From assembly GCA_021324535.1 (NCBI GenBank), contig JAJPIU010000203.1, positions 5,366-69,365 on the forward strand: a stretch of 64,000 nt of DNA, written 5' to 3'. The DNA is from Pseudomonadota bacterium (lineage in GTDB: Bacteria; Chloroflexota; Ktedonobacteria; Ktedonobacterales; JADMIN01). Made by a program: the position numbers and the translations under genes. The stretch's first letter is position 1; each line of letters begins with the position of its first letter. This document shows, piece by piece, positions 22,498 through 42,324 of this stretch. The notes beneath the pieces are model-generated. The model did not search any database and was not told where the DNA came from. It saw nothing but the letters and a program-made list of their open reading frames with translations.

Positions 22498-22548
22498 CGG
22501 TAAGTATGCCTGTTGCGCCTGACTGTGTTTTCAAGGAGTTCCTTTCCC

Positions 22549-25378: not shown

Positions 25379-25436
25379 GCGCTTGCGACGCTTGCGACGC
25401 TTGAGAGAACCATGAAGTTTGAGAAGGGAGACGCCA

Positions 25437-25670
25437 GTGAGCAGACTGGTTCGCATTGCGGGCAATCATCGCATGGCTGTCGCGCCGGTGCGCGAGGGAC
25501 GCCATATGGGACGCTACTTCCTGGCGTTCGAGTTCTTTGGCAAGTGGCGCATCATCACCGACGAAGATACGCGCGAACTGTTGACCTGGAAGACGCCGGA
25601 AGAAGCCTGGGCCGCAGCAGAGTCGTGGCGCGCCATGTGGGACGAGATCAAGCACCCCGATCTTCCCTGA
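25437..25670 (+). CDS. Hypothetical small protein (about 77 aa)
   Basis: GTG start with AAGGGAG 6 nt upstream. The sequence is non-repetitive and W/E-rich (...FLAFEFFGKWRIITDEDTRELLTWKTPEEAWAAAESWRAMWDEIKH). No family recognised. Confidence 0.45.
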   Translation: MSRLVRIAGNHRMAVAPVREGRHMGRYFLAFEFFGKWRIITDEDTRELLTWKTPEEAWAAAESWRAMWDEIKHPDLP

Positions 25671-25928
25671 TGACTATCCTTCCTAACAGATTTTTGTCAC
25701 GCCTGTTACGTTTGGCGCCCCTCGCTAGTGTCAAGAGCGATACCTGCCCAGAGCGGGTTGTATCCAGGGGAGCGAGGGAGTATGCAGATGGCGATAGCGC
25801 GCTGGCCAGCCCATCCCAGATCACCGCTTTCCATCGCGTCAGGCGTCCTCAGGTGGATGGCGCAGTCGCGTCTGTGGCAAAGACCATATGCCCTTCCTAT
25901 CTCGCAGCCTACGCCAACAAATGCGCCG

Positions 25929-26525
25929 ATGGGTGAAGACACGAACACAACCGTTGGCAAACTTTCCGGCGCGTCCGACCTTCACGGCGACGCTACGCGC
26001 CAGCCGAACAATGGCAATACCATCCTCTCCGCTGAGTGCGAGGCGTTTATCCGCCAGCACGAACGCGACATCCTCAACTACCTCTGGCGCATGCTTGGCG
26101 ATGAGCAATCGGCGTATGACCTCACGCAGGAGGTCTTCCTGCGGGCGTGGCAGCATTTCGACACGATTCGCGCGTATGACCATCCGCGTAGCTGGCTCTT
26201 TCGTGTCGCCACCAACCTCGCCCTCACACAGCTTCAGCGCCGTCGGGCGCCTGTTGGCGCGCCTGAGACGCTCGATGAGACCAACGCGCCGTCGAGCAGC
26301 GATCCCACCTGGCGGCTGGCTGAACGCGATCTCGTCCGCGAGACACTGCGCCAGCTTGCGCCAAAACGCCGCGCCGCGTTGGTGCTACGCGAGGTCTACG
26401 GCCTGAGCGCCGACGAGATCGGCAAGGCGCTAGGCATGCGGGCGACTGCGGTGCGCATGACGATTTTCCGTGCCCGCGAACAGTTCCGCGCCATCTATCT
26501 GCGCGAGGGAGGGCAGGAGCCATGA
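25929..26525 (+). CDS. ECF (sigma-70 group 4) RNA polymerase sigma factor
   Basis: Region 2 (DLTQEVFLRAWQHFDTIRAYDHPRSWLFRVATNLALTQLQRR) and region 4 (RAALVLREVYGLSADEIGKALGMRATAVRMTIFRAREQF). The start is uncertain; the track ORF begins at 25728. Confidence 0.85.
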   Translation: MGEDTNTTVGKLSGASDLHGDATRQPNNGNTILSAECEAFIRQHERDILNYLWRMLGDEQSAYDLTQEVFLRAWQHFDTIRAYDHPRSWLFRVATNLALTQLQRRRAPVGAPETLDETNAPSSSDPTWRLAERDLVRETLRQLAPKRRAALVLREVYGLSADEIGKALGMRATAVRMTIFRAREQFRAIYLREGGQEP

Positions 26526-28222
26526 CGCCACCCGACAAGACCAGCCTCAACCTCAATCACCACCAGCCTGGCTGCCCTCTTGCCATCCGCGACGAAACAC
26601 TCTCCTCCCTGCGCGACAATACGCTGAGCGCCCGTGCGACTACACGCCTGCGCACACATATCGCCGAATGCGCGGCCTGCCAGCGTCGCCTGGCGCAGTT
26701 CGACGCCACCACAGACCTCTTGCGCGGCCAGCGTGAGCTTGAGCCAGGGAACCGCATCCTAGCGGGGGTGCGCGCCCGCGCAGAGCAACTTGCCGCACAA
26801 CCACAACAAAGCCATCGAAGCCATCGAAGCCATCGAAGCCATCGGCTGGCGCGACAGGAGAACACACGAAAGAACACCCAAGAGGCCACAAGCAGGAGGT
26901 CAGGCATGTCTGTGACGAGCGATGAGACGACAAGACTTGTCCCCCATCTACAACTCAAGCCCCCAACGCACAGAGGGCGCATCTGGGGCAGCCTGGGCGC
27001 GGTAGCTGCTATTGCGGCCATCGTGTTGCTGTTTGTGGTCATCTTTCATGGGCTAGGCGGGCAAGTTTCAGGCAAAAGTTCTGCAACCCATAGCAAGACA
27101 GCGACAGCGACCACCTTCCCGACAGAGACGCCTGTGGCGACAGAGACACCACCAACCGCTTGGGGAACCGGCGCTATTGTCGCGACAGTGGATACACGAA
27201 TAGACAGCAGACATGTCTTCGAGGCAATTACTGTCACCGCCGACGGAACCGGACTACTAGGATACATGCTCACGTTAAAAGCTGATGGCGTTTCTCCATC
27301 TGATAAGGCGCCGGTAGGCATCCTCACCATCGCCACCCGCCAGTTTACACCAATTGGATTGAGCAACTATGTCAACTACCCGCCCATCTGTTGCAGCGAT
27401 GATGGGCGCTTCCTGACGGCCGTGGACAACGCGGCCCCAGGGGAAACATGCGGCATTTGCAATACGCAGGTGTGGGTGTATGACCGCGAGACGAAGAAGA
27501 TTCACCTGCTCTTCACAGGAGGAGGCATCATCGGCAATCCAGACTTTGAGCCGACAAATGATGGTGGCTACATTGCCGTGGCGCACAGGGGATTTATGCT
27601 TGCCAATCTGGCTACCGATAGCCTGACATCGCCTATTACCTTTCCGGCAGGCTATGACTACGATCCCATGTCCTATAGCTGGCCGTATCTGGCGTATGCA
27701 AAAGTCAATAGCGCATCAACGACTGTTTATGTACACAATCTGGCGACCGGACAGGAGACAGCATCTTCTGCGCTCACACAGCTCTATACCGTCTCGCAGA
27801 TCAACCCTTCGCATCCCACGCTCTCTTTTGGAGAACTGGCTATCGTAGGGACGACAGCATATGCTACGGTTTTGAATACACAGGATGGTGTACTTACCCT
27901 CTATGAGGCTGACAACTTCACCAATAGCGCATCGCAGGCGCGTGTGATTGCGAAACTTAGCGCTGTGACCCAGATGATCGGCGCAAACGACCGTGTCGTG
28001 GCCTTCGCTGAGGGGGTGTGGGATTTGGCGCAGCATCGCTTCATTCGTGGGCCGGTTCCAGGAAGCGGAGGGAATGTTTCGCATGGTGGACAGGTCAATC
28101 CAATTGGCCTCACAGGAAAATACCTCATCTTTATTCAACCCACGGGCGCCATCCCTTCCAACGACGTCCCTAATTATTATGAGCATGTGACCGTTTACGA
28201 TACCTCACGCCTGCCTGTGTGA
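26522..28222 (+). CDS. Anti-sigma factor (zf-HC2) with TM segment and large extracytoplasmic domain
   Basis: ATGA overlap with the sigma gene, the HIAECAACQRRL zinc-finger anti-sigma motif, one TM segment (WGSLGAVAAIAAIVLLFVVIF), and a ~370-aa external domain. Contains SHRSHRSHRSHR from a 4 x 9-bp repeat. Confidence 0.75.
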   Translation: MTPPDKTSLNLNHHQPGCPLAIRDETLSSLRDNTLSARATTRLRTHIAECAACQRRLAQFDATTDLLRGQRELEPGNRILAGVRARAEQLAAQPQQSHRSHRSHRSHRLARQENTRKNTQEATSRRSGMSVTSDETTRLVPHLQLKPPTHRGRIWGSLGAVAAIAAIVLLFVVIFHGLGGQVSGKSSATHSKTATATTFPTETPVATETPPTAWGTGAIVATVDTRIDSRHVFEAITVTADGTGLLGYMLTLKADGVSPSDKAPVGILTIATRQFTPIGLSNYVNYPPICCSDDGRFLTAVDNAAPGETCGICNTQVWVYDRETKKIHLLFTGGGIIGNPDFEPTNDGGYIAVAHRGFMLANLATDSLTSPITFPAGYDYDPMSYSWPYLAYAKVNSASTTVYVHNLATGQETASSALTQLYTVSQINPSHPTLSFGELAIVGTTAYATVLNTQDGVLTLYEADNFTNSASQARVIAKLSAVTQMIGANDRVVAFAEGVWDLAQHRFIRGPVPGSGGNVSHGGQVNPIGLTGKYLIFIQPTGAIPSNDVPNYYEHVTVYDTSRLPV

Positions 28223-28333
28223 CGAGAGGGATAAATACAGGGAGGCACATGAGCGAGTGGGCGCATTCATGCGCCCACACAATATGGCATAATATGCTGG
28301 AAACCGCCCTCTATCACGAAAGGCGTCCAAGCA

Positions 28334-29680
28334 ATGCCTATACTGCAACAATTTGGTTCCCTAACGCGTCGCAGGCTCTACTACTCCGTCGCGGAAGATG
28401 GGCCACTGGCTCCTCCGGCTGAAGCGGAAAAAGACGCAGCGACTACAACGGCTGCGCCATCCGAAACCGATCCCCAGGCACAGGCGCAATCGCCGCAAGT
28501 GGCCACCGCGCCAGCCGAGGTGGACGAGGCACGCCAGGAGCTTGCCCGCCACTATGCGCGCCAACGCCAGATGCTTAGCCTGATCAACCTGGGGATCAGC
28601 GCCGTCGTGATCGTCGTGCTGCTCTTCACAGGACTCAACTTCGCGCTGCGTGATGCGCTGGGCGGCGTCTCGGCGTGGTCGCCGGTGTGGGGCTGGCAGC
28701 CGCTCAAGATCACGGCGTACTTTGGCGTGCTCTTTGCGGTCTCGTTTGTGCTGGGGCTGCCACTTGGCTTCTACGGCGGCTATACGTTGCCGCGCCGCTA
28801 CGGCCTTTCTACACAATCGCTGCACGGCTGGCTGATCGATCAGGTCAAAGAGCTGGCGCTCTCGCTCGCCTTCGAAGTGGTGGCCGTCGAGGCGCTCTAC
28901 GCCCTGCTGGCCGCCGCACCGCTGACGTGGTGGCTGTGGGCGGGCGGACTGGCGCTGTTAGTGACGGTTGTGCTGGCGAACCTGGCGCCTATCCTCATCT
29001 TGCCTCTGTTCTATAAGCTGACGCCGCTGCCGGAGGGCGACGTGCGTGAGCGGTTGCTTGCGCTGGCGCACCAGGCGCGTACCCGCGTGCGTGGCGCCTA
29101 CTCGATGAACATGAGCGCGCGCACTACGGCGGCAAACGCAATGGTGATGGGCCTCGGTAATACGCGCCGCATTGTACTTGGCGATACGCTGTTGGATCGC
29201 TACACGCCCGACGAGATCGAGGTGGTGGTGGCGCACGAGCTAGGCCATCAGGTTCACCGTGACATCCCCAAACTGATCGCTGTGCAAACCATTGTCATGC
29301 TGGGCGGCCTGTATGTGGTGAACGTGGCGCTGCATACGGTGGTGAGCAGAGTTCCAGGCTATCATGGCTTGAACGACAGCGCGACGATGCCACTGATCGC
29401 CGCCGCGCTTGGCGTATTCGGATTAGTCACATTGCCACTGGTCAATGGCTTCAGCCGGTGGGTGGAGCATCAGGCGGATGTCTATGCGCTGGAATCCACC
29501 GGCAAAGCCGATGCCTTCATCGGCGCGATGACACGGCTGGCCAACCAGAACCTCAGCGAACTGAACCCCTCGTCCATCGTCGAGTTTTTGCTCTACAATC
29601 ACCCGTCCATCGGCAAGCGGCTCGCCTATGCGCGCAGGTACGCGAAAGCGCATCATCAGGAGGACGCACAACAACTATGA
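28334..29680 (+). CDS. M48 family (Ste24/HtpX-like) membrane zinc metalloprotease
   Basis: VVAHELGHQVHRD (HExxH), several TM segments, and a length and N-terminal domain typical of Ste24-like M48A enzymes. Confidence 0.85.
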   Translation: MPILQQFGSLTRRRLYYSVAEDGPLAPPAEAEKDAATTTAAPSETDPQAQAQSPQVATAPAEVDEARQELARHYARQRQMLSLINLGISAVVIVVLLFTGLNFALRDALGGVSAWSPVWGWQPLKITAYFGVLFAVSFVLGLPLGFYGGYTLPRRYGLSTQSLHGWLIDQVKELALSLAFEVVAVEALYALLAAAPLTWWLWAGGLALLVTVVLANLAPILILPLFYKLTPLPEGDVRERLLALAHQARTRVRGAYSMNMSARTTAANAMVMGLGNTRRIVLGDTLLDRYTPDEIEVVVAHELGHQVHRDIPKLIAVQTIVMLGGLYVVNVALHTVVSRVPGYHGLNDSATMPLIAAALGVFGLVTLPLVNGFSRWVEHQADVYALESTGKADAFIGAMTRLANQNLSELNPSSIVEFLLYNHPSIGKRLAYARRYAKAHHQEDAQQL

Positions 29681-30363
29681 CAGATATGATAGTGACACAA
29701 TGGACAAACCTGCCTCTGGAACAGCCCTGTGCCGACGAGGTTCCCGGCCTTGTGCAGCGTTACGGTGAGCCACTGGCTATCCGCGCCAATGGCTGCGATG
29801 AGTTCCTGCGCACAGTGAATATGAGCGACCGCCCCGCCGAGGTTTGTATGGTGGTGCGCCGCCCCAACGGAAAATTGATCACCTCGACCAAGGCGTTTTA
29901 TCCGTCGGAGACCTATCGCTTGCCCACTGGCGGCATTCACCCCGGCGAATCCCTCTACGATGGGCTACTGCGCGAGACGCATGAGGAGACCAGCCTGACG
30001 GTCGCCGTGCGCCGCTTCCTGGGCATTGTGCGCTATGGCGCCGCCGATGCTCCCCCTGATCCGGCGGTGGGACACGCCAGCCTGCAACACGACGGGCTGT
30101 ATGTCTTCACCACCTATGCCTTCCTGCTGGATGAACTTGGCGGCGACCTGCATATGACCGATCCCAATGAGATGGTAACAGGCTATCGCGAGGTCACTCT
30201 CTCCGAATTACCGGCCCTGGCCGAGCATCTCGAGACGCTGGGTGATCAAGTCGCACGGAACACTACAGAACCTGCTGATGTCGTGGCGACCTGGCGCGTC
30301 TGGGGCGCCTTCCGCGCAGTGGCGCACCGGATTGTCTACAATGCGCTAACACAGACGGGTTAG
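29677..30363 (+). CDS. NUDIX hydrolase
   Basis: Nudix box GGIHPGESLYDGLLRETHEETSL. The ATG at 29677 overlaps the M48 stop (ATGA). The track ORF 29458.. is an upstream extension in the same frame. Confidence 0.8.
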   Translation: MTDMIVTQWTNLPLEQPCADEVPGLVQRYGEPLAIRANGCDEFLRTVNMSDRPAEVCMVVRRPNGKLITSTKAFYPSETYRLPTGGIHPGESLYDGLLRETHEETSLTVAVRRFLGIVRYGAADAPPDPAVGHASLQHDGLYVFTTYAFLLDELGGDLHMTDPNEMVTGYREVTLSELPALAEHLETLGDQVARNTTEPADVVATWRVWGAFRAVAHRIVYNALTQTG

Positions 30364-30370
30364 TTAGTGA

Positions 30371-31465
30371 TCATAGCTGCTCCCAGGCGCTCGTGCGCCA
30401 GGCGTCCACCTCATCCTCCGCAGGCAGCCACGGCGGCAGGGGCATCAGCAGGCGGTGCGAGAGCGCATGCACATATGGCTCATAGAGCGCCCGCATCTCT
30501 CTGAGATGTTTTTCGGCGGCTGGCCCCTCGCGCAGTGGCGCGCCCACCTCGGCGAGCGCCTGAGCGAGCTTTGCAAAATCCTCGGAGGAGAGCCGCTCGT
30601 GGCAATGTTTGCTCGGCGGCGTGTTAGCGATCTGACTGAGGTCAACAGCAGCGTGCCGGGCCATCGCAAACGCCAGTTGCGCCGCCTTGGGCGATACACC
30701 CTCTATCCCCACCTTGACCAGCGCGCTGGCATCGAGGATGGTGGTCAACGCGGCCAGCCACGACTGATTCTCGTGCTGCGACCGAAAATAGCCAAGCGAC
30801 GGATACGACAGGTGCGACTCCATCAGTTCGGCGGCCCATTGCTCCCAGGCGCCCAGCAGCTTCACCAGTTCATCGCTGCCATAGTCTCGCATATGCCTGC
30901 GAATCAGTTCGACGGCGCTTGGCGGCGAGCCAGCGCGCGCATCGAGCAGAGAGATATTCACCTCGCGGCGAGAAAACGCCTGATAGAGGACGGGCAGGTA
31001 GCCAATCACCACGGCCAGCGTGCCAAAGCCGATGCCCGCCTCAACGACGGTCAGGATACGCGCAGGCATGGAAAGAGGAATCACGTCGCCCAGGCCCAGG
31101 GTGAAAAATGTCGTGCCGCTCATGTACAAGTCAAGGCCAAATGACGGCGCATGGCCGTTTGGTGTAGCTAGCGCCGAGCCAAACGCCCACTGCAACAGAG
31201 CGAACCCGATGATGAGGCCCGTCGCCCAGATAAACAACAGGAAGAACAACGCAAGCGGCCCGTAAAAACTCAGAAACGTTTCACGCCGTCCATTGTGATG
31301 AAGCCGCCGCCCAACAGCAGACCACGGAGTCCAGGTGAGGCGGTATACCCAGTTGGTCAGGCGATAGCGCCTAGCCACACGGCGTGGTAACACGGTTGTT
31401 TCAAAAGCATCGCGCAGGATCGCCAGGATCAAAACACTTGCCAGCGCTCCACCGATTATTGACAT
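30371..31465 (-). CDS. Potassium-channel family protein (2-TM pore domain plus cytoplasmic domain)
   Basis: Pore-helix/selectivity-filter-like sequence SGTTFFTLGLGDVIP between two TM helices. The start at 31465 is preferred because GGAGGAGG lies 8 nt upstream; the ORF is open to 31519. Confidence 0.7.
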   Translation of the reverse strand: MSIIGGALASVLILAILRDAFETTVLPRRVARRYRLTNWVYRLTWTPWSAVGRRLHHNGRRETFLSFYGPLALFFLLFIWATGLIIGFALLQWAFGSALATPNGHAPSFGLDLYMSGTTFFTLGLGDVIPLSMPARILTVVEAGIGFGTLAVVIGYLPVLYQAFSRREVNISLLDARAGSPPSAVELIRRHMRDYGSDELVKLLGAWEQWAAELMESHLSYPSLGYFRSQHENQSWLAALTTILDASALVKVGIEGVSPKAAQLAFAMARHAAVDLSQIANTPPSKHCHERLSSEDFAKLAQALAEVGAPLREGPAAEKHLREMRALYEPYVHALSHRLLMPLPPWLPAEDEVDAWRTSAWEQL

Positions 31466-31502
31466 GACGGCGCCCTCCTCCACTCCGCTGTTCTGTGCGC
31501 CT

Positions 31503-32066
31503 TCATGCTGATTTGACACGATGCGCCCAGGCGACCAGCGACTCGACGATCAGCTTCACCCGCTCGCGGAGCGCCTGATCAGTCAGATTACCCTGCGCGT
31601 CAAAATATAGCTCGTTACGCAAGACCATCAGCTCAGGCTTGCCCATCACATAGGACTCAGTGAAGACGAATATCTGCCGCCAGTTCAACTGGGCGCGCAC
31701 CGTGCCAAATTGCCCCCCTGCGCCCATAAGGGCAATCGGCATGTACCGTAAGGGTGAATCGGCGACGGGGCGCGACACCCAGTCAATGGCGTTCTTCAGG
31801 ACACCCGTCACCGAGTAGTTGTATTCGGGTGTGGCCAGCAGAAGCGCGTCAGCCGTGCGGAGATGGTTCTTAAACGCGCGCACCGGCTCTGGCCCACCAT
31901 CAATGTTGTCATCCTCATTATACAACGGCAGTCGCGATATATCCGCAATCTCGATACTGACGCCCGGCGGAGCGACCTCCTGGGCAGCGCGTAGCAATCC
32001 GGTATTCGTCGAACCCCTGCGCAGGCTGCCCGAAATTCCAACGATGCGAAACGGCGTATCGCTCAT
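31503..32066 (-). CDS. NADPH-dependent FMN reductase
   Basis: MSDTPFRIVGISGSLRRGSTNTGLLRAA ... LLLATPEYNYSVTGVLKNAIDWVSR is the flavodoxin-like FMN_red signature. CAGGAGA SD upstream of the ATG at 32066. Confidence 0.85.
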   Translation of the reverse strand: MSDTPFRIVGISGSLRRGSTNTGLLRAAQEVAPPGVSIEIADISRLPLYNEDDNIDGGPEPVRAFKNHLRTADALLLATPEYNYSVTGVLKNAIDWVSRPVADSPLRYMPIALMGAGGQFGTVRAQLNWRQIFVFTESYVMGKPELMVLRNELYFDAQGNLTDQALRERVKLIVESLVAWAHRVKSA

Positions 32067-32273
32067 GTGTGTCTCCTGTATGTTTGTGTTTTCCCGTTGT
32101 TTAGCCCACAGCCCTGCCTCTGAAGGGCGAAAGCCGGTATGATCTTGACGCTCCCAGCCAACATGCGCTATGACTGCATGTGTGCTACTATAAAATCTAA
32201 AGTATTGTGGCAAGAGCCTCCGGAGGCGCATGGCTTGTCACTTATCGCATCAGAGAAAGGGAAGGAAGCGGCA

Positions 32274-32750
32274 ATGAACGAACAGGCAAAGAAAGAGGCG
32301 CTCCGTCTCTTCACTTATGGATTATATGCGATTTCCAGTGGAGATGAAGCAGAGAAAAATGCGTTTACAGCAAACTGGCTGAGTCAAGTCAGTTTTGATC
32401 CGCCACTCGTGGCGCTTTCCATCGAGCGTACATCAGCCTCGTTGCCCATTATTCGCCGGACGAAACGCTTTGTCATCAATGTGTTTGGAGAAGAGCAGCG
32501 CCAGCTTGCCGGACAGTTGGGAAAGTCATTGGTCAAGCATCCCGATAAGCTGGAAGGTGTCGCCTTTGGCGCTACGCCGGACGGGTCTCCGATTCTTCCA
32601 GAAACCCTTGCCTGGGTAGCATGTGAGGTAGAGAGTGAAACATCGGCGGGCGATAGCATCCTTCTGCTTGCGCGTGTCGTGGATGCGGGCGTGCTTCGAC
32701 AAGGTGAATCCCTGACGATGAGGGCAGCAGGATTCAAACATGCGGGCTAG
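32274..32750 (+). CDS. Flavin reductase-like (FMN-binding split-barrel) protein
   Basis: FTYGLYAISSGDEAEKNAFTANWLSQVSFDPPLVALSIE matches the flavin reductase domain pattern. GGAAGGAAG SD upstream. Confidence 0.85.
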   Translation: MNEQAKKEALRLFTYGLYAISSGDEAEKNAFTANWLSQVSFDPPLVALSIERTSASLPIIRRTKRFVINVFGEEQRQLAGQLGKSLVKHPDKLEGVAFGATPDGSPILPETLAWVACEVESETSAGDSILLLARVVDAGVLRQGESLTMRAAGFKHAG

Positions 32751-32814
32751 CGTAACGACATTTTAGGAGAAACAAACTAAAGAAAGCGCAGCGGAAGCAC
32801 ATTTTTATCTGCGC

Positions 32815-32928
32815 ATGAGCTATGATCTGTGCATTAAAATGTACGGCGCCCGCCCCAAATGCGCTTGTTCGGAAGAATTGGACAAGTGTAGCACATGCAA
32901 AATACGCCAGATATGCAAAAATTGTTGA
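32815..32928 (+). CDS. Candidate Cys-rich micro-ORF (37 aa), unverified
   Basis: My own translation: MSYDLCIKMYGARPKCACSEELDKCSTCKIRQICKNC, with 7 Cys including CxC and two CxxC. It is below the 60-aa track cutoff. There is no adjacent SD, and it is AT-rich relative to the genome. Confidence 0.25.
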   Translation: MSYDLCIKMYGARPKCACSEELDKCSTCKIRQICKNC

Positions 32929-33210
32929 AGTTCACTCTGTTCTTGGTCGCATAGGGCAGTAGGCGTCAGCAGAGAGTTTCCTCCCACGCGCTTTACCTTT
33001 GCGTAAGGGGAACACTTACGCAAAAAGCACAAGGCTGCTATACCATTTCTTAGAGGAGCGCAGGTAGCAGGTGGTCATCATAGAAGCAGTAACCTGTGAT
33101 GTGATTGAAGGTGATTGTGGCAGCTATTGGCTATTGGTACCCCTGTCAAGTGGTAAGACATCAAGAGAATGCCGGTTTCATGATAATCATGAATAATTAG
33201 AACTCGCCTC

Positions 33211-33239
33211 TTGACGATTGGTAAAGTATCATCTACAAT
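33211..33239 (+). promoter_or_regulatory. Near-consensus sigma-70 promoter (TTGACG - 17 nt - TACAAT)
   Basis: Read directly. It lies about 210 nt upstream of the XRE-TPR gene start and directly upstream of the structured element 33271..33398. Confidence 0.6.
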
Positions 33240-33270
33240 AGAATAGTCGTTTGAAGGTTGTCTAAAGAAT

Positions 33271-33398
33271 AGGAACATCCATTGCATCTCACCAGTGTTC
33301 AGTTTGGCGCAACAACGGTGAGAAAGACGCATGCGATAACCCCTCCCCGGTGGGAGGGGTTAGTCGTCGCGCATGCTATTTCAATGGAATGTGTTCCT
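33271..33398 (+). ncRNA. Candidate structured leader / cis-regulatory RNA (closing helix plus two hairpins)
   Basis: Closing helix: 33271-33284 (AGGAACATCCATTG) pairs with 33382-33398 (CAATGGA-atg-TGTTCCT), 14 bp with a 3-nt bulge. Hairpin 1: TCTCACC/GGTGAGA (33287-33293 / 33317-33323). Hairpin 2: GCATGCG/CGCATGC (33329-33335 / 33370-33376) extended by a perfect 11-bp TAACCCCTCCC/GGGAGGGGTTA stem with a CGGT loop. Confidence 0.45.
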
Positions 33399-33447
33399 TA
33401 ATTAGTTGAAACGTGAAAGTCGACAACTTTCTATTGGGAGGGCAAAA

Positions 33448-34935
33448 GTGACGAATAGAGTCGCTGACGGTGGGGAGAAGGCCTCCACCGAAACCAGAGA
33501 GCAAGCAGGCGCAGAAGCAGCAAATGTGGACACTGCGTCTGAGGCGCCTCAAACAACTGAGATCCGCAATGCAATTTCCGAACAGATGACGCCAGCTCAG
33601 CGTCTTGGCATGCGGTTGCGTCAGGCGCGATTGAGACGCAACATGACTCAATCTGAAGTCGCGCAAAAACAATTCTCAGTGTCCTACATCTCAGCAGTAG
33701 AAAGAGGACAGATTCGCCCCTCGCTTGGCGCCCTCGAGCGCCTGGCCGAGCGTTTGGAAGTTCCTCTTGCTGAGCTTATGCAGGATCGAGAATCAAGCTC
33801 ATTTGGCTTTGTCGAGCGGAGTGGTCGTGAAGGGTATGGCTACGGGGATCGCGCGCGTGAGGATGTAGAGGGCAAGCTGAGGGAAGCCATGCTGATGATC
33901 TACACCCGCCGCTTCTCTGACGCCATTGCGCTTCTCACCAGTCTGACGAACCGGACGCTTGCGTTACACGATCAGGTGTTGCTCCGCTGGCGGCTTGCCA
34001 TTTGCTACACTGAGATCGAGCAAGGGGACGACGCACGACGTGAGGCGCAGGAAGGGCTTGTCCTGGCGGAGCGCGTGGGCGATGTGGAACTGCGTGAGCA
34101 TCTGCGTAATGCGCTCGGCAACGCGCTCTTTGTCATGCGCAAATATCAGGCTGCGCTCGACCAATGGCGCTCCTGCCAGGACGCCATCGAGCAGGGGTTG
34201 ATCAAAGACCCCATTTTTGCCCTGAACGTTCTGTTCAATATTGGTTCAGTCTACTGGGCATTGGGCGATACCGGCTCAGCGATGAACTACCTGGTCAAGG
34301 CGACCGAGAGCGCCGAGGAGGCGACGCATCCTGAGCGGCTTGCCGAGAAGTATCGTGTCCTGAGCGAGACCGCCGCCAGCCAGAATGATACCGCTCACGC
34401 GCGGTTCTATGGCCAGCGCAGCATTGCCGCCTACGAGGAGGCTGCCACGCTCAAACTCTCAGGTCGCATCTACAATCTGAGAGGGCGCGCGTATGCGGAA
34501 GAAGGCAAGACTGCGGAAGCGTTGAACTACCTGCGCTCCGCGCTTCAGCTTGCCGAGGAGCAACAGGACGTGCGCGGCGCTATCGAGGCGCAACGCGGCC
34601 TGGCTTCGATCTCGATTGGACATGGCAAGATTGAGGATGCGATTCGGGCCATCAACGATGCCCTGAGCCGCGCCGACACCATTGGCGATCCTGTCCAAAA
34701 GGCAGAGTCCTTGCTTGTGCTGGCGCAGACACAGGAAGCGCGCAAAGAGTATGGCGAAGCCGAGCGCAGCTTCGATCAGGCTATCCAGTTGCTCAGCGCT
34801 GAACAGGCGTCGCAGCGGCTGAGCGACGCCTATGCACAGTTCTCGTCCTTCCTCGAGCGGCGTGGCCAGAGCAAACGCGCTCTGGAACTGCTCAAGCAGG
34901 CGTGGAAGCTGCGCGACGGCATCGCAGTGAGCTAA
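33448..34935 (+). CDS. XRE-family HTH transcriptional regulator with C-terminal TPR domain
   Basis: HTH_XRE: LGMRLRQARLRRNMTQSEVAQKQFSVSYISAVERGQIRPSLGALERLAERLEVPLAELM. About 380 aa of TPR-like repeats follow. GTG start with GGGAGGG 5 nt upstream; the track ORF starts at 33406. Confidence 0.85.
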   Translation: MTNRVADGGEKASTETREQAGAEAANVDTASEAPQTTEIRNAISEQMTPAQRLGMRLRQARLRRNMTQSEVAQKQFSVSYISAVERGQIRPSLGALERLAERLEVPLAELMQDRESSSFGFVERSGREGYGYGDRAREDVEGKLREAMLMIYTRRFSDAIALLTSLTNRTLALHDQVLLRWRLAICYTEIEQGDDARREAQEGLVLAERVGDVELREHLRNALGNALFVMRKYQAALDQWRSCQDAIEQGLIKDPIFALNVLFNIGSVYWALGDTGSAMNYLVKATESAEEATHPERLAEKYRVLSETAASQNDTAHARFYGQRSIAAYEEAATLKLSGRIYNLRGRAYAEEGKTAEALNYLRSALQLAEEQQDVRGAIEAQRGLASISIGHGKIEDAIRAINDALSRADTIGDPVQKAESLLVLAQTQEARKEYGEAERSFDQAIQLLSAEQASQRLSDAYAQFSSFLERRGQSKRALELLKQAWKLRDGIAVS

Positions 34936-35257
34936 CCATACCAAACAGACCAGGACAACCTTCGCTGCGTTTTCTGCCAAAGGCAGGAGAAGCAGTAGAG
35001 CGCGAAAGGCGAAAAAACACGCCTTCACTTTCCTCCCAGTCAGACAACTATCAAATGCTGGCGCAATAACTGAGGGAACGACGACCTCTCGGAGATGCGC
35101 CAGCTGTTGTGCGTTTTCCACTACTATGTATGTGTGAAACTCCGGTTGGGGCAGAGATATGGCGTGTTTGTGTTGTCCGCCAGCGCCTTGAGCAAGCCTG
35201 ACGAACTTCACATCCCAAGCGCGCAAAGGACGCGACAAATGCAACTGCGCTGTTGTG

Positions 35258-35293
35258 GGCGCATGCGTACATCAACGCATGCGCCTGTTTTTT
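35258..35293 (+). terminator. Strong rho-independent terminator
   Basis: 11-bp perfect stem GGCGCATGCGT/ACGCATGCGCC with a 6-nt loop, followed by TGTTTTTT. It lies about 320 nt after the XRE-TPR stop with no convincing ORF in between. Confidence 0.8.
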
Positions 35294-35327
35294 GCTATCC
35301 AACGTTCTTTCCTGCTCTTCGCACCGC

Positions 35328-35349
35328 CACGTTATAATCACGTTATAAT
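35328..35349 (+). repeat. 2 x 11-bp perfect tandem duplication CACGTTATAAT, giving two consensus -10 boxes
   Basis: cacgttataatcacgttataat read directly, just upstream of the GT39-like gene region. Confidence 0.85.
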
Positions 35350-35412
35350 CAGGTGAGGTTAAGATGGTTGAAAAGCCGATGAATCAGGAGATCAGAGGGA
35401 GAATCTGTCGCA

Positions 35413-37809
35413 TTGAGTGTGGAGACGATGCCAACCGGCGAACCAGATCGGCGGCGCGCCAGGCGCCACAACTGGCGTGCGAAACCGCCAGCAACGCCAT
35501 CTTCAGGCGTCGATCTATCTCCGCCGCCGGATAGGCGCGGCTACCTCATACAGACGCCAATGAGACTCTGGCGGCGCCTGCCACCCTGGGTGACACGCTG
35601 GGACTTCGCGCTGGTTGTGGCGCTTGGCGCGCTCATGCGCCTGTTCTGGCTCGATACCACCTCGTTTCTTGGCGATCAGGCCGAACTTCTGGCGCTTGCG
35701 CGGTCGGCCCTGACACGTCATACGCTGCTGGCGACCGGTATTCGTTCCTCGATTGGCGCGCTCAACCCGCCTGCCTCGGTCTATGCGCTGTTACCCTTCG
35801 CACTGAGCGATCCTTATGTTGCGACGTTTGCCACGGCCCTCGCCAATCTCCTTGCCGTCGCGCTGCTGTATGGCTTGGCCGATAGCTACTTTGGGCGTCG
35901 CGTCGCCTTCACGGCGGCGTTGCTCTATGCCGTTAGCTCCGGCCCTGTCAGCTACTCTCGTTTTATCTGGCAGCAAAATCTGTTGGCGCCGGTCGTGATC
36001 CTCTTTTTCTGGACGCTGTTGGCTGGTGTCTTTCATCATCGCAGGGGCTGGCTTGGCTGGAATGCCCTGCTCTGGGGAATCGCCGTTCAGTTGCACCCCA
36101 CCGCCGCCCCGCTGATCGCGCTGACGCTGATTGGAGCCTACCTGGAACGAAAACGGCTGCGTCCACGCGATCTCATATTTCCCATGCTGGCGTTGCTCGT
36201 GCTGTTCGCGCCCACGCTGCTCTGGGAGGCCGCCACACATATCAGCGACGCGCAGGCCGCGCTTGGCTATACCGGACGCCAGGCAGTCGTTGACGAGTCC
36301 GCCGAATTCTTCCTGCTCGATCTCACGCTGCCGGTCAGCTCATTCGCCACAGGCTCCGCCGCCGCGCATTCCATCACCGTCGCCTGGATGAGCTGGCTTG
36401 GCTGGCTGATGCTTGTGATCTTCGCCACTGCGCAGGTGTGGCTGGCGTTTACCCTTGTGTGGCCGGTCTATCGCACGCTTCGCTTTGGCGCGGCGGCTGC
36501 TCCTGCTGACCGCCCCGATGTTCCTACCGACGCGGCGCCCCGCTCGCCACCACATACACCGAATAAGCAGAGCGAACGCGCCATCCGCTGGCAAGCGGTC
36601 TATTATCTGACGCTGGCCGAGCCGCGCTGGCTGGCGCTGGCGTTGCTGGCGGCCTGGCAAGACTTGCCTCTGCTGGTGATGCTGCGCCACTCCTCAACAG
36701 TGCATCCCCACTATTTGCTGGTCGTCCTTCCGGCGACGTATATCATCATCGGCCTCTTCCTGGTACGCTCCATCGAGCGGCTGATTGGCTGGCTGGCGAC
36801 ACAGCATAGCACCGCACGGCGCATGGAGCGGCTGGGGCTATCAAACGCGACACGGCGCATGCGGGCGACGCTTGCGGTTGTGGTCATCACGTTGGCGGGC
36901 GGGCAGGGGATCGTCACGCTGGCGCAGATCAACGCCGTGCAAAATGGCGCGGTCGCCGCCACGAGCTATGGGATGTCGCTTGGCGACCAGCGGCTTGCCA
37001 TCCAGGCGCTCGACGCGACGGCGCGCCAATACCACGCGCAGGCATATCTGGCGGCCACCCCACTCTTGCAAGAGTCGTTGGGCTATCTCGCGGCGACCGA
37101 GGCGCCGCAGACCTCCGTCTACAACGGCGCAAACTGCCTCGTGACGGCGGACAGCCAGCCGGTCGTCACGCTGATCATATCTCCATCGGCGGCGTCTACC
37201 CTGGCGCCCATGCTGGCGGACGAGCGGCTCGTGCGCAGTGTCAGACTGAGCGATGGCGCGTCACTGCCGATCTACCTGCTGGAGCCGGGAGGCAAGCTAA
37301 GGGATGAACAGGCGATTACCTACACTGAGAAGCAACCGCCCTTCCACGATCTTTTCCCGCTCGGTTATGCTGTACAGACGATGGAGAGAGCGCATACGAC
37401 AATGATCGTTCACTGGTCAGGAACGCCTGCGCTGACTGAGAACGGCCAGCAGCCGGAAACAGGGGTAGATGCGCGGGCAGCCTATTGGTTCGGCGCGTCG
37501 CCGGATGGGCAGGCGCCCGTGGTAGCGAACTATGACTTCTTTGTGCAGCCGTTCGACGCCAACGGACATGCGTTGGGCGCGCCGCAAACAGGCTTCTGCG
37601 GCGCACTGGGGTGGGCCAAGGGGATCGATGTCTATAGCGCGATCACGCTGCCAGCGGCGGTCGCTGCCGGGCAGGCTGCACACTGGCGCGTATGGGCGAT
37701 GGCGGCGCCGCTGGTGGTCAGTCGCCCAACGCTGGGGCCGCTAACACTCGAATCGGGCGATGCGCGCTTCACAGAGGCGGTAGCTGTTTCGGGCGTCAGC
37801 GAGATCTAA
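35413..37809 (+). CDS. GT39/ArnT-like polytopic membrane glycosyltransferase with large C-terminal domain
   Basis: 798 aa. There are about 12 TM segments in the first ~480 aa, with the early loop pattern FWLDTTSFLGDQAE typical of PMT/ArnT-type (GT-C) enzymes, then a soluble C-terminal domain. The start is uncertain (TTG at 35413, or ATG near 35560). Confidence 0.7.
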   Translation: MSVETMPTGEPDRRRARRHNWRAKPPATPSSGVDLSPPPDRRGYLIQTPMRLWRRLPPWVTRWDFALVVALGALMRLFWLDTTSFLGDQAELLALARSALTRHTLLATGIRSSIGALNPPASVYALLPFALSDPYVATFATALANLLAVALLYGLADSYFGRRVAFTAALLYAVSSGPVSYSRFIWQQNLLAPVVILFFWTLLAGVFHHRRGWLGWNALLWGIAVQLHPTAAPLIALTLIGAYLERKRLRPRDLIFPMLALLVLFAPTLLWEAATHISDAQAALGYTGRQAVVDESAEFFLLDLTLPVSSFATGSAAAHSITVAWMSWLGWLMLVIFATAQVWLAFTLVWPVYRTLRFGAAAAPADRPDVPTDAAPRSPPHTPNKQSERAIRWQAVYYLTLAEPRWLALALLAAWQDLPLLVMLRHSSTVHPHYLLVVLPATYIIIGLFLVRSIERLIGWLATQHSTARRMERLGLSNATRRMRATLAVVVITLAGGQGIVTLAQINAVQNGAVAATSYGMSLGDQRLAIQALDATARQYHAQAYLAATPLLQESLGYLAATEAPQTSVYNGANCLVTADSQPVVTLIISPSAASTLAPMLADERLVRSVRLSDGASLPIYLLEPGGKLRDEQAITYTEKQPPFHDLFPLGYAVQTMERAHTTMIVHWSGTPALTENGQQPETGVDARAAYWFGASPDGQAPVVANYDFFVQPFDANGHALGAPQTGFCGALGWAKGIDVYSAITLPAAVAAGQAAHWRVWAMAAPLVVSRPTLGPLTLESGDARFTEAVAVSGVSEI

Positions 37810-37917
37810 ACTTTTGGGAAGTAGGAATCGCGCACCCGTCAAGGCGCAACATCCAGGCGACCACACTCGCCGCCAGGGGCGGCGCCACTCGATCCCATGC
37901 CACCTGATGTAGCTCGT

Positions 37918-37950
37918 CCCATGCCAAACAGGGTTGCTGTTCGGCATGGG
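37918..37950. terminator. Long hairpin between convergent genes (possible bidirectional terminator)
   Basis: CCCATGCCAAACAG-ggttg-CTGTTCGGCATGGG, 13 of 14 bp paired, with no U-tract on either strand. It lies between the GT39-like stop and the HNH stop. Confidence 0.35.
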
Positions 37951-38057
37951 GCAGCCCGCGCAGGCAAGCTCCGTGGTTGTAAGCCCTTGGGCGTGGCTTC
38001 AGTCGCCCACCTGCTATGCCCCCATCCCATTGATGGGAAGGGGATGGGGAGTTAGGC

Positions 38058-38621
38058 TTACCTCGCGACGGCCAGCGAGATCATTTGGGATGATGGCGAA
38101 TGGGCCGAGTTCAGGAACTGCTCATACGCCTCGCGCAGACGCGGGTAGCGCAGCAGGAAGAAGCCAGCGTACTCGTTCTGGAGCGGACGCGGCTGCTTGA
38201 GCAGGGTCATCCCCACCTCTTTGAGCAAGCGGTTTCCCTTGCGGCCATTGCAGGCGCGGCAGCACGCGACGAGGTTCTCCCAGGTGCTTTGCCCGCCACG
38301 CGAACGCGGAATCACATGGTCGAGCGTTAGCTCGCGCATATGCTTCCCGCAATACTGGCAGGTCTCTTCGTCGCGCAGGAGGATGTTGGCGCGCGTCGGG
38401 CGCAGCGCCATACGGGGAACGCGTACATTGGCAAGCAACTGCACGATCACCGGCTCATCCGCCGAGATACGACGAGTCTGGATTCCCTCTTCGATCACGC
38501 GGCGCACGTTCTCGTCTACAAAGGCGACCTTCTGCTTGGAGAGCAGCACGACGAGACGGCGCTCCGGGATAACTGAGAGCGGCTGAAGTGACGCATTGAG
38601 CACCAGTACCGGCATCGGCAA
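38058..38621 (-). CDS. HNH endonuclease
   Basis: CQYCGKHMRELTLDHVIPRSRGGQSTWENLVACCRACNGRKGNR is a complete HNH/zinc-ribbon motif. 187 aa, with a good SD (AAAGGGGG). Confidence 0.9.
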   Translation of the reverse strand: MPMPVLVLNASLQPLSVIPERRLVVLLSKQKVAFVDENVRRVIEEGIQTRRISADEPVIVQLLANVRVPRMALRPTRANILLRDEETCQYCGKHMRELTLDHVIPRSRGGQSTWENLVACCRACNGRKGNRLLKEVGMTLLKQPRPLQNEYAGFFLLRYPRLREAYEQFLNSAHSPSSQMISLAVAR

Positions 38622-39256
38622 CCCCCTTTCTTGCTCATACCGCGTCGTCTGGCCTGGAATCGGACGGTGGAGGGCAGATGAAAGGGAAGGCGCGCGATCC
38701 GGGTGGTCATCACAGGGGTGAGGAACTCCGGTTCGGCGCGTTCACGCTCTCTGCCGTCTATACCGACCGCAAAAGCGTTCGCAACCTCGCCCAAACATTC
38801 GGCGATAGGAATACCATCGCGGAAGACAATCCAACAAAAACTGTAGAGACCAGGATGGATACCACAAAAGGTCAGGCAGCGGCGCCACACCTGACGGCCT
38901 TGCTGACCGGCTGGGTGTGGATGTCATGGCGTGTTTGGGCGCTACACGCATCGCATGGGGCGATCCGCTGACGACCATCGCTGACATAACCTGCTCCCTT
39001 GATCATGGTACCCTGGCGAGGTGGACGAAGATGGCGCACGAGAACGTCAGCGTCCATCGCGAACGGGAAACGACAAACAAACAATCAGTGCGCACGCATC
39101 TTGCGTGGCTGTGAGGCTGATCCTTCACGCGCCGCTGACCATCTGGTGTGTGTGGCTTGCTCGATACACCTGGTGTAACTTGCGCGTACCGCGAACATGC
39201 CCTCTAGCCCGATGAACGCCTCGCCAGTGAGGATTCATTGGTCTACAGAGCAATCT

Positions 39257-39333
39257 TGGTCGGGGTGAGAGGACTTGAACCTCCGACCTCAGCGTCCCGA
39301 ACGCTGCGCGCTAGCCACCTGCGCTACACCCCG
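39257..39333 (-). tRNA. tRNA-Pro (anticodon CGG), CCA encoded
   Basis: Reverse complement: CGGGGTGTAGCGCAGGTGGCTAGCGCGCAGCGTTCGGGACGCTGAGGTCGGAGGTTCAAGTCCTCTCACCCCGACCA. It folds into a cloverleaf with acceptor CGGGGTG/CACCCCG, anticodon loop TTCGGGA, and T-loop GGTTCAAGTCC. Confidence 0.95.
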
Positions 39334-39469
39334 AAAGACAGCCTGCTGTGGAAGCATGGCGCCGACCCTCTTTGAGAAGTATCTGCGCTTGTCTTTCCAC
39401 AGCGAAGTATAGCATATGGCGAAGCGAACTGCAAGGGCAGATCGATCCATATTTTCGATTGGGGCAAGT

Positions 39470-39832
39470 TTACCCTTCGGCTCCGCTCTCCTGTCCCTCC
39501 TGAATGACGCCAAGCGCATTGCCAAAAGGATCGGTGACGCTGGCCAGCCGTGTGCCGCCCCCCACGTCAATGATCGGCGTGCGCTCCTGCGCACCGAGCG
39601 CAACCAGCCGCGCCATCGCCGCCTCGATGTCGTCAACTTCCCAGTAGGCGACGGACTGCTCCTGTCCCTTTGGCGCGTCGGGGTCAAGCCCAAGCTCAAA
39701 GCCATTCACCGAGAAGCCAACATAGTGAGGATCATCAAAATAGGGCGCGAACCCCAACACTTCGCTATACCAGGCTTTCGCCCGCTCGATGTCATCCACG
39801 GCATAGATGACGGATCGCACACGCTTTAGCAT
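39470..39832 (-). CDS. VOC family protein (glyoxalase / bleomycin-resistance fold)
   Basis: 120 aa. VRSVIYAVDDIERAKAWYSEVLGF ... ASVTDPFGNALGVIQ is the typical paired beta-alpha-beta-beta-beta VOC pattern. Confidence 0.85.
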   Translation of the reverse strand: MLKRVRSVIYAVDDIERAKAWYSEVLGFAPYFDDPHYVGFSVNGFELGLDPDAPKGQEQSVAYWEVDDIEAAMARLVALGAQERTPIIDVGGGTRLASVTDPFGNALGVIQEGQESGAEG

Positions 39833-39933
39833 ACCTACCTCCTCCCATCAGTGGGAAGGGAAGAATAGCGCCTGCCATGACAGGCAGACGTCTCGCTCTT
39901 CAAGAGCGGTTCACTTTATTCGTCGTTGGCCTG

Positions 39934-40827
39934 TCAGAGGTAGCAGACGCCCTTCTGGCCTGGAATCGCTATGCGCCGCGCCTGTCCCTGCTCGGCCAGC
40001 CGCTCCAGTCCGGCGCGTAGCTCGGCTTCGGGCAGATGCAGGTGGCGCGCGAGCGGGATCGGCTGCGCGTAGACCGCAGCAGGTAGATACGCCCGTAACA
40101 GCGCCTCGAGCGCCTCGGCGCGCGTCAGGCGATCCGCCGCAGCCACATGATCGGGGTAGCGCACGGCCACCAGCGCATGGCGCATCTCCTGGTCATCCTC
40201 GGAGAAGACCTTCGCCAGCAACAGTTTGGCGTCAAGCTCCTCCACCGCTTTGAGATAGGCTGTGCGCTGGCCGGTGGGAAAACCAGCCGCCGCACGCAGT
40301 TCGCCGGTGGTTAGCGTCGCCTCTGGCGCGTCGGCCAGCGCCTGCGCCACCTGATACGCGCCTTTCGAGAACGCGCCTGCGTCATATGCTTCATCCAGCG
40401 CGCGTAGCTCACCCCAGAGCCGCAGCACGGCAGGCAAGAGCGTCCAGCTGACCAGCGTGGGGCGCTTGCGAATCAGCGACGTATAAAACGCCGCCTGACG
40501 TCGCCCCAATATCCAGCGCCAGGTATAGATGTCACCCGATACGCTTTCCCAGTCGGAGGTCGGCTGCGTGGTAGGGTCGCCAGTGTAGGCGTGCAGCAGG
40601 TTGGGCAGTTCGGGTGAGGTGGGATAGAGCGTCGCAATACCGACGCGCTCGATCAACGCGGTGGCGGCTATGGGATCGGATGTGCGTGTGGCTAGGGTTT
40701 GTCCCCAGTTGGTTAGCCGTCGCGCGGCAAGCTGCTCTGCCTGTCGCTGCGTCAGTTGTTCCGGCTGTGCAACCGCTTCCTCTGTTGTTTGTGGTTCAGC
40801 CGTGCGTGTCATCGTTTTCATCGTCAT
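39934..40827 (-). CDS. Hypothetical protein (about 297 aa, helical, possibly winged-helix repeats)
   Basis: Good coding appearance. The ATG at 40827 overlaps the stop of the upstream SH3-like gene (ATGA), implying translational coupling. The ORF is open to 40860. No family confidently recognised. Confidence 0.65.
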   Translation of the reverse strand: MTMKTMTRTAEPQTTEEAVAQPEQLTQRQAEQLAARRLTNWGQTLATRTSDPIAATALIERVGIATLYPTSPELPNLLHAYTGDPTTQPTSDWESVSGDIYTWRWILGRRQAAFYTSLIRKRPTLVSWTLLPAVLRLWGELRALDEAYDAGAFSKGAYQVAQALADAPEATLTTGELRAAAGFPTGQRTAYLKAVEELDAKLLLAKVFSEDDQEMRHALVAVRYPDHVAAADRLTRAEALEALLRAYLPAAVYAQPIPLARHLHLPEAELRAGLERLAEQGQARRIAIPGQKGVCYL

Positions 40828-41183
40828 CCATTCATCTCCAAAGAACTGAGGGGTACCCATCCCTCCTGGCCATCATCTGCGCGACACCATGCCCAGCCGC
40901 TCTCGGTGGTCAGCGCCTGCACGCGCTGTCCCTCGCGCACGCTCAGTTCGCGGGCGGAATAGTCCACACGCAAGCTGCGCTGGCTCCCTTCGCCATCCAG
41001 ATAGGCCAGCGGGGTATAGCCTTCTTTGCCACGCGCATCGCGGCGCCATATCCAGACCCACTCCGTATGCCCTTCCCATTGGCTGATTTGATCGGTGAGT
41101 GTCACCACCTCGCCCGCCAGGGCAGCCAGTGGATAGGGAAACTCCACTACGTATTCGTGGCTTACTCGATAGGATGGAGACAT
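40824..41183 (-). CDS. Tandem SH3-like domain protein (about 119 aa)
   Basis: Two SH3-like segments: ...GEVVTLTDQISQWEGHTEWVWIWRRDARGKEGYTPLAYL and ELSVREGQRVQALTTESGWAWCRADDGQEGWVPLSSL. The ATG at 41183 has GGGAGGG 8 nt upstream. Confidence 0.6.
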   Translation of the reverse strand: MSPSYRVSHEYVVEFPYPLAALAGEVVTLTDQISQWEGHTEWVWIWRRDARGKEGYTPLAYLDGEGSQRSLRVDYSARELSVREGQRVQALTTESGWAWCRADDGQEGWVPLSSLEMNG

Positions 41184-41316
41184 AGCGATAACCCTCCCAC
41201 AGGTCTTCAAGGTCTTCGCATCATCTCTTTCAGTGTACCCGCGAATGTGGTTAAATACAGTCCACAATCTGAAGCAACATGACGCAATGTGATCCAATCT
41301 GGCAGGAGAAACGCAT

Positions 41317-42318
41317 ATGACCTACTCGCCAGCCGGGCGACTGTTGACGCTGCTCGATGTGTTGCAGTCGCGCTCTCGAGTTTCTGCGGCGGAGCTTGCG
41401 GATCGGTTGCAGGTGGAGACGCGCAGCGTGCGGCGCTATATGCTGCTGCTGCAAGATATGGGGATTCCGGTGGAAGCGCGGCGTGGGCGCTACGGCGGCT
41501 ATCGCCTGCGGCCTGGCTACAAACTGCCACCATTGATGCTGACAGATGAAGAGGCGCTGGCGCTGACGCTGGGCCTGCTGACGACGCGGCGCCTGGGGTT
41601 CTTTGGCCTGGCCGACGCAGCGCCTGCCGTGGAAAGCGCGCTGGCGAAGATTGAGCGCGTGCTGCCGGTGGGGCTACGTGAACGCGCCCAGGCGGTGCAG
41701 GCGGCGGTTGCGCTCGACCCCGCAACGCTGGTCATGCCGGAGGCCATGCCACCGGAGTATACGCCAAAAGCGCCTGCGCGGCTGGTGCTGGCGCTCAGCG
41801 CGGCGGCCCGCCAGGGGCAGCGACTCATCCTGCGCTATATTGCTAGCGATGGAGCTGAGACGGTGCGCGGCTTCGATTGCTATGGTCTGGTCTATCACGA
41901 TGGCCGCTGGTATGCTGTGGGGTATTGTCATCTGCGCCAGGCCATCCGCACCTTCCGACTGGATCGCATCCACAGCGCCAAAGAAGACGACGCCAGCTTC
42001 ACACGCCCGGTCGGCTTCGACTGCCTCGCCTACGCGATTCAAGCCTTCGCCGCCTGGCCCGATGCCTGGCGCATCGAGGCACTGATCAAGGCGCCGCTGA
42101 CCACCGTTTATCAGCGTGCGCCAACTGCCTTCGCCAGCCTGGAAGAAGCGACCGATGGCGTAATACTCCGCGCGTATGAGAACGACCTCGATCACGCGGC
42201 GCGCTTTCTGGTTGGCTTGGGGTTGCCCTTCATCGTTCGCCAGCCACCTGAGCTACACGATGCGCTCCAGCAGATCGCCGACGAGATTGCCGCCACGCTG
42301 GCGCGTTCAGCGGGGTAG
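41317..42318 (+). CDS. YafY-family transcriptional regulator (HTH + WYL + WCX domains)
   Basis: N-terminal HTH RLLTLLDVLQSRSRVSAAELADRLQVETRSVRRYMLLLQDMGIPV, then the WYL domain YGLVYHDGRWYAVGYCHLRQAIRTFRLDRI. AGGAGA SD. Confidence 0.9.
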   Translation: MTYSPAGRLLTLLDVLQSRSRVSAAELADRLQVETRSVRRYMLLLQDMGIPVEARRGRYGGYRLRPGYKLPPLMLTDEEALALTLGLLTTRRLGFFGLADAAPAVESALAKIERVLPVGLRERAQAVQAAVALDPATLVMPEAMPPEYTPKAPARLVLALSAAARQGQRLILRYIASDGAETVRGFDCYGLVYHDGRWYAVGYCHLRQAIRTFRLDRIHSAKEDDASFTRPVGFDCLAYAIQAFAAWPDAWRIEALIKAPLTTVYQRAPTAFASLEEATDGVILRAYENDLDHAARFLVGLGLPFIVRQPPELHDALQQIADEIAATLARSAG

Positions 42319-42324
42319 GAAGAC

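Follow-up and report, generated by a model that had tools for sequence, protein, structure and literature searches.

The structured element in front of the XRE-TPR regulator gene is best explained, tentatively and from sequence comparison, as part of the 5' leader of the regulator mRNA, in which one hairpin, called hairpin 2, would be a leader terminator (attenuator) or the descendant of one. It lies in a stretch of 64,000 nucleotides (the window), which has a GC content of ~60% and comes from a Ktedonobacterales-type Chloroflexota genome. If hairpin 2 attenuates, a regulator with a nearly invariant DNA-binding helix across the Ktedonobacterales would be under leader control, and such control, if true, would give an entry point to the switching of the XRE-TPR gene. 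As it stands the element is a stable, species-specific leader structure, and a striking single-sequence fold is not the same as evidence for a new class of RNA; it is probably a lineage-specific leader of the attenuator type and not a new conserved RNA class. The Ktedonobacterales are filamentous, spore-forming Chloroflexota on which, to our knowledge, almost no experimental genetics has been done, and a search of the literature gave no paper connecting Ktedonobacteria with such a regulator or leader.

The protein P0001 is 100% identical to the product translated from 33448, and all homologues of the regulator are found in Ktedonobacterales MAGs; neither a close named family nor a solved relative of the XRE-TPR regulator was found. 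The HTH segment is invariant among orthologues which are 45-76% identical overall. The element is situated in an intergenic region of 697 nt (32751-33447, 45% GC) which follows a flavin-reductase gene on the + strand ending at 32750. Two other features are present in this region upstream of the promoter. One is a cysteine-rich ORF of 37 amino acids, MSYDLCIKMYGARPKCACSEELDKCSTCKIRQICKNC (CxxC...CxxC), at 32815-32928 on the + strand, for which no obvious SD, no Pfam match and, by tblastn, no counterpart in the loci of the relatives was found. The other is a perfect 10-bp hairpin at 32998-33024, TTTGCGTAAG-GGGAACA-CTTACGCAAA, with a T-run on neither strand.

The first-pass annotation of this DNA had proposed a near-consensus promoter, and this promoter is indeed present (Table 1). 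It is the only + strand site with at least 10 of 12 matches within 25000-44000, and a strong promoter position is conserved upstream of the orthologues. Transcription would start near 33246. Most orthologues with upstream DNA have a sigma-70-type site (9.5-11 of 12 matches) 100-300 nt before the start, and a strong promoter is likewise found ~200-260 nt upstream in the relatives at 57-65% protein identity, whose leader sequences differ. Because the promoter position is conserved before the orthologues, the element is placed within the 5' leader of the XRE-TPR mRNA. The upstream neighbours vary from a flavin reductase in the window to an RlmA-like methyltransferase at the loci L048, L049 and L059 of relatives and a RecD2-like gene at L052. 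Each of these loci has an intergenic region of 550-760 nt and a promoter with 10-11 of 12 matches 230-260 nt before the start, and since the long intergenic region and the promoter are shared despite the differing neighbours, the leader is taken to belong to the XRE-TPR gene. The leaders predicted in the relatives are 234-256 nt long.

Table 1. Promoter, leader, structural parts and regulator gene (positions in the window).
Feature	Position	Strand	Basis or remark
Sigma-70-type promoter TTGACG-17-TACAAT	33211-33239	+	-35 at 33211-33216, -10 at 33234-33239; 10/12 matches
Predicted 202-nt 5' leader of the XRE-TPR mRNA	33246-33447	+	MFE -72.6 kcal/mol, z -4.66 for the 205-nt leader
Closing helix, 5' arm (7+7 bp)	33271-33284	+	Checked pairing, MFE; not conserved in relatives
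Hairpin 1, 7-bp stem, 23-nt loop	33287-33323	+	UCUCACC 33287-33293 with GGUGAGA 33317-33323; not conserved in relatives
Hairpin 2	33329-33376	+	7-bp base helix, 1x7 internal loop, 11-bp upper stem
UAUUUC tail, degenerate U-tract	33377-33382	+	Directly after the hairpin 2 base helix
Closing helix, 3' arm with 3-nt bulge (33389-33391)	33382-33398	+	Formable only in read-through transcripts
Small hairpin GAAAGU/ACUUUC	33415-33431	+	Pairing checked
Shine-Dalgarno GGGAGGG (33436-33442) and GTG start codon (33448-33450)	33436-33450	+	Sequence
XRE-family HTH + TPR regulator gene, 495 aa	33448-34935	+	GTG start; conserved across Ktedonobacterales

The helices listed in the first-pass annotation (the closing helix, hairpins 1 and 2 and the small hairpin) are all present, with their pairs verified base by base, and RNAfold returns the three-helix architecture described there as the MFE whether the 205-nt leader or the 128-nt element is folded. 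The closing helix pairs 33271-33277 with 33392-33398 and 33278-33284 with 33382-33388. In hairpin 2 the base helix is formed by GCAUGCG (33329-33335) and CGCAUGC (33370-33376), and the upper stem is a perfect 11 bp (33337-33347 with 33352-33362) closed by a CGGU loop. In the MFE of the full leader ACUUUC, the 3' arm of the small hairpin, is paired instead with the 5' end of the transcript (33250-33262). RNAfold gives the 128-nt element an MFE of -57.8 kcal/mol (z -5.79), and the values for the 205-nt leader in Table 1 come with 0/200 shuffles. Hairpin 2 is the best local hairpin of the window's leader (-28.0 kcal/mol, z -5.9).

Upstream DNA was fetched for every relative with it at 57-65% protein identity, plus the 45 loci of a genome-collection scan, all of which are at most 49% identical. 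The closest relative (P0002, 76% identical) is known only from contigs beginning inside the gene, and a single metagenome scan with a lineage-specific coding pattern gave only the same species and this truncated contig. The contigs L056, L057 and L058, three independent assemblies of the closest relative, have the same first base inside the invariant HTH-coding stretch; this common start is probably an assembly break from sequence shared among co-occurring species.

When the 697-nt intergenic region and the element were used in blastn and nhmmer searches of all fetched loci, same-species contigs only were found. Only L059 gave a marginal local alignment with the window's leader (z 3.6, p ~0.005 before correction for 8 comparisons), and a leave-one-out HMM of L048, L049 and L059 did not recover the window's leader. 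Clear homology among the leaders themselves is seen within L048/L049/L062 and within L052/L060. A motif that appeared by eye to be shared, CAAYGKTGA...CGCATGCG, was rejected: an HMM including the window matched its training sequences only, and the leave-one-out HMM missed the window.

Pairing was compared in a MAFFT alignment of four sequences (window, L048, L049 and L059). The closing helix is paired in 8 of 18 cells in the relatives and hairpin 1 in 19 of 36; judged from this alignment, both are at chance level and are not conserved. For the base helix of hairpin 2 the count is 16 of 21 paired cells in the three relatives, and its GCG/CGC pairs are invariant in all four aligned sequences. 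It should be noted that the favourable global pairing statistics have a base of only four sequences, one of which also supplied the structure. The closed three-helix element does not survive as a conserved unit, its covariance model matching only itself in the window and 52 related loci. Lack of conservation had been named beforehand as an outcome that would speak against a novel structured RNA, and on that measure the proposal fails for the closing helix and hairpin 1, the base helix standing at the count given above.

The evidence which carries the attenuator reading is found in the leaders of L048, L049 and L059. These contain canonical intrinsic terminators, with a GC-rich stem of 10-18 bp (18 bp in L059) followed by T5-T6. 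The consensus terminator scan omits those of L048 and L049, in which the maximal stem absorbs part of the T-run; they are seen with a separate script and directly in the sequence. Relative to the predicted start, the hairpin ends at +131 in the window and at +129, +132 and +137 in L048, L049 and L059, respectively, and the start codon lies 71-124 nt beyond the hairpin end in these four leaders. Among 16 orthologous leaders a local hairpin with z at or below -4 is found only in the window (-5.9), L048 (-4.2) and L049 (-4.9), and no leader terminators were found in the more distant orthologues. The alignment puts the window's base helix on the lower stems of the three terminators and UAUUUC on their T-tracts. 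These comparisons show hairpin 2 to be equivalent in position and alignment to the terminators of the relatives, an equivalence which, because the window's leader has no demonstrable sequence homology, rests on the position and a weak four-sequence alignment.

Hairpin 2 itself, with its 11-bp upper stem and 7-bp base helix, has the GC-rich stem-loop that is demanded of an intrinsic terminator. The sequence directly after the upper stem, GUCGUCG, is no U-run, UAUUUC after the base helix has 4 U out of 6, and no terminator is called here by the consensus scan. An attenuator had been one of the options offered in the first-pass annotation; it gains from the match to the relatives' terminators but is weakened by the degenerate U-tract and the missing call. 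No second promoter was found between the hairpin and the start codon in the window, L048 or L049, and the regulator gene therefore depends on read-through.

We propose that transcription would proceed from the promoter through the 5' untranslated leader of the XRE-HTH/TPR mRNA, the functional core of which would be hairpin 2 and its UAUUUC tail. In the relatives the leader would act as an attenuator, so that most transcripts would stop at ~+130 and the regulator would be made only on read-through. The two-tier stem and degenerate U-tract of the window would probably make a weak or conditional terminator, or a pause site; that hairpin 2 terminates or pauses transcription, or regulates at all, is our inference. 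In read-through transcripts the closing helix would lock hairpin 2 into a stable closed fold, with protection of the mRNA as a possible further effect. On this view neither the closing helix nor hairpin 1 belongs to a conserved aptamer; both would have been added in this lineage.

Rho-independent leader terminators, or transcription attenuators, are a general class with examples in the trp, pyr and bgl operons. The window resembles them in having a promoter, then an untranslated leader and a GC-rich stem-loop well upstream of the start codon, in that a stem with T5-T6 is found at the same position in sister lineages, and in that no promoter of its own lies downstream of the hairpin. It differs from them in its degenerate U-tract (UAUUUC) and in a stem which is broken by the 1x7 internal loop, and no antiterminator, leader peptide, binding-protein site or ligand pocket was found in the window. 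The element belongs to no named attenuator family.

A more far-reaching idea, which we consider distinctly unlikely, is that a subclade of the Ktedonobacterales (the window's lineage together with L048, L049, L059 and L062) has an undescribed module consisting of a consensus promoter, a ~130-nt leader RNA with a terminator at a fixed distance and, after it, an XRE-TPR master regulator that is conserved. Some signal would set the level of read-through, for instance through a new riboswitch-like sensor or through translation of a uORF across the terminator, and the window element would be a divergent member.

Small reading frames were seen in several of these leaders. A 61-codon uORF in L048 (2806-2991) and in L049 (2794-2979) begins from a conserved AAGGG-N7-9-ATG and spans the leader terminator; the uORFs stop 10-22 nt before the main start and encode peptides that do not resemble each other, and L062 does not preserve the frame. 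At the site of the L048/L049 uORF start L059 has an ATG-TGA (1357-1362). A coding explanation of the window's element was rejected: the small ORFs on both strands are without Pfam matches, and the ORF through hairpin 2 (27 codons, GTG at 33318) is no longer than expected by chance (p 0.26).

The promoter and the fixed position of the hairpin could also be read as an independent sRNA of ~130 nt, starting at the promoter and ending at hairpin 2, which was another option of the first-pass annotation and is hardly probable at all. The strong promoter of its own would suit such an sRNA, and in L048, L049 and L059 the unit from promoter to terminator (~130-137 nt) resembles a self-contained gene. 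This is at variance with the window's lack of a proper U-tract and of a canonical terminator, with the absence of sequence conservation and with the regulator gene's need for read-through; moreover, the element occurs only upstream of the XRE-TPR gene and only in this species.

The attenuator reading has further to be weighed against a neutral, lineage-specific structure without any regulatory role beyond that of a 5' UTR, low-GC intergenic DNA rich in inverted repeats being DNA that folds well. We regard this as somewhat unlikely. On a fixed 128-nt grid covering the first 45.5 kb of the window, the segment overlapping the element is number 5 of 712 (z -3.5); the element is among the top 1% of the grid segments, yet it is not unique in this genome. 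The intergenic 128-nt segments 10241-10368 and 22401-22528 have z values of -4.4 to -4.5, which favours neutrality, as does the fact that the element was singled out of the whole 64-kb window and is not conserved beyond the species. (In segment 10241-10368 a long inverted repeat, GTATAGCGGAGC...GCTTCCGCTATAC, adjoins a TACAAT box.) Variation within the species points both ways. Contigs of the same species from other samples (L046, L047 and L063) have at most 4 differences to the window over 4.4-6.7 kb, and 2 of the 4 SNPs in 6.7 kb are inside hairpin 2, namely 33349 G>A in the tetraloop and 33370 C>A in the innermost pair of the base helix. This clustering within the element counts against strong sequence constraint; but the SNPs preserve the structure, the variant keeping the same fold with -57.2 vs -57.8 kcal/mol. 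A neutral origin is also at odds with a z of -5.8 with exact borders, with 39 uninterrupted Watson-Crick pairs in five helices, and with the spacing from the promoter to the end of hairpin 2, which matches that of the terminators in the relatives.

The 39 listed pairs are without exception Watson-Crick pairs, and the reverse complement of the element folds as well as or better than the + strand (-60.4 kcal/mol, z -7.3); the fold therefore gives no information on the strand, or on RNA versus DNA. Such symmetry would also be seen in a palindromic element acting at the DNA level, be it a MITE- or REP-like insertion, an older CGCATGCG hairpin interrupted by a 26-bp perfect palindrome, or a set of inverted repeats past the promoter to which a protein binds. 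We hold this to be quite improbable. The element has in common with MITEs and REP repeats its terminal inverted repeats (14-nt ends, 14 pairs with a 3-nt bulge), its internal palindromes, its size and its strand-symmetric pairing. The CCCCTCCCC/GGGGAGGGG stem of hairpin 2 is found again at 6823-6848, L010 and L026 have it inside a shared, longer motif, the CGCATGC hairpin of L059 has a 5-nt loop where the window has a 34-nt insert, and an IS630-like element is present upstream of one orthologue. Unlike such repeats the element is a single copy in the sequence searched: the covariance model found no second copy on either strand of the 64-kb window and the 52 related loci (395 kb), and its 24-nt core has no other occurrence in the window with up to 3 mismatches. 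A clean target-site duplication is lacking too, with no direct repeat at consistent borders (flanks ...AGAAT and TAATT..., AAT/TAA at the ends), and the element sits where the relatives have a terminator. A MITE had been among the alternatives raised in the first-pass annotation. As binding sites the arms are unlike operators, being 23-97 nt apart; the CGCATGCG octamer is not enriched in the window (9 found, 7.6 expected), and k-mer enrichment for a conserved operator in 47 orthologous upstream regions gave only AT-rich words and the -35 hexamer, with no motif common to all despite the invariant HTH.

The recurring stem at 6823-6848 is that of a T7 terminator on the - strand (6823-6860), which comes right after the gene 6861-8303; the use of this stem in a terminator elsewhere in the genome speaks for the attenuator reading. 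The composite motif CCCCTCCCC-loop-GGGGAGGGG-nn-GGGGGAGAGG is found at 6823-6860, in L010 (1683-1720) and in L026 (4615-4655), in non-homologous places of three Ktedonobacterales genomes, and may be a shared palindromic element. The IS630-type transposase genes (DDE_3 + HTH) of L055 (139-1183) are directly upstream of the orthologue and replace the long leader region.

Finally, a closed multi-helix fold between a promoter and an SD calls to mind a novel riboregulator sensing a ligand or a factor, in which the three-helix junction would be an aptamer controlling read-through or translation. The location in a 5' UTR, the closed fold and the size of ~130 nt are shared with riboswitches and the cis-regulatory leaders of Rfam, and this reading is nevertheless very improbable. 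With Rfam 15 the only match in the whole window at gathering thresholds was a tRNA at 39260, and at E ≤ 10 the only one in 32000-35000 was a generic 24-nt hairpin match to rnk_pseudo (18.8 vs 55 bits); the leaders of 20 related loci gave no match. The first-pass annotation had recognized no riboswitch consensus, and the Rfam result agrees. In the orthologous leaders neither the junction nor the closing helix and hairpin 1 are conserved, no covariation was seen in the sequences compared, and no conserved unpaired nucleotides were identified. The prefix folds are in favour of a riboregulator: they suggest, within an energy model, that until the 3' arm of the hairpin 2 base helix is made its 5' arm can be bound for a time by the 5' end of the transcript (GUCGU). 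So is the complementarity between CCCUCCC in the 5' arm of hairpin 2 and the SD GGGAGGG, but this does not differ significantly from chance in the window (p 0.07) or across the family, and the fold with the SD sequestered is 12 kcal/mol worse than the MFE. With CCCUCCC held in hairpin 2, an SD-sequestering leader, an RNA thermometer and an anti-SD switch were rejected on these grounds. The mean unpaired probability of the SD is 0.41.

A conserved leader of another kind was seen in a different clade of orthologues (L020, L021, L022, L024 and L038, at ~2730-2956 in each). It is ~240 nt long and has an invariant helix of 9-10 bp, CGCCUUCUG/CAGGAGGCG, ~50 nt before the start codon, and compensatory changes are found at 12 of 68 predicted pairs.

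Some further features of the window were noted. On the + strand a canonical terminator with a 14-bp stem and T6 lies at 35255-35294, 320 nt past the stop codon of the XRE-TPR gene, and its stem has the CGCATGCG palindrome, as has the base helix of hairpin 2. Before the PMT_2 glycosyltransferase gene there is a tandem duplication, CACGTTATAAT CACGTTATAAT, at 35330-35351 (+ strand) with two -10-like boxes. Two separate genes contain repeated 43-nt units (20666-20804 and 62631-62673) that code for repeats rich in Tyr and Pro (YAPYPPYG-like).
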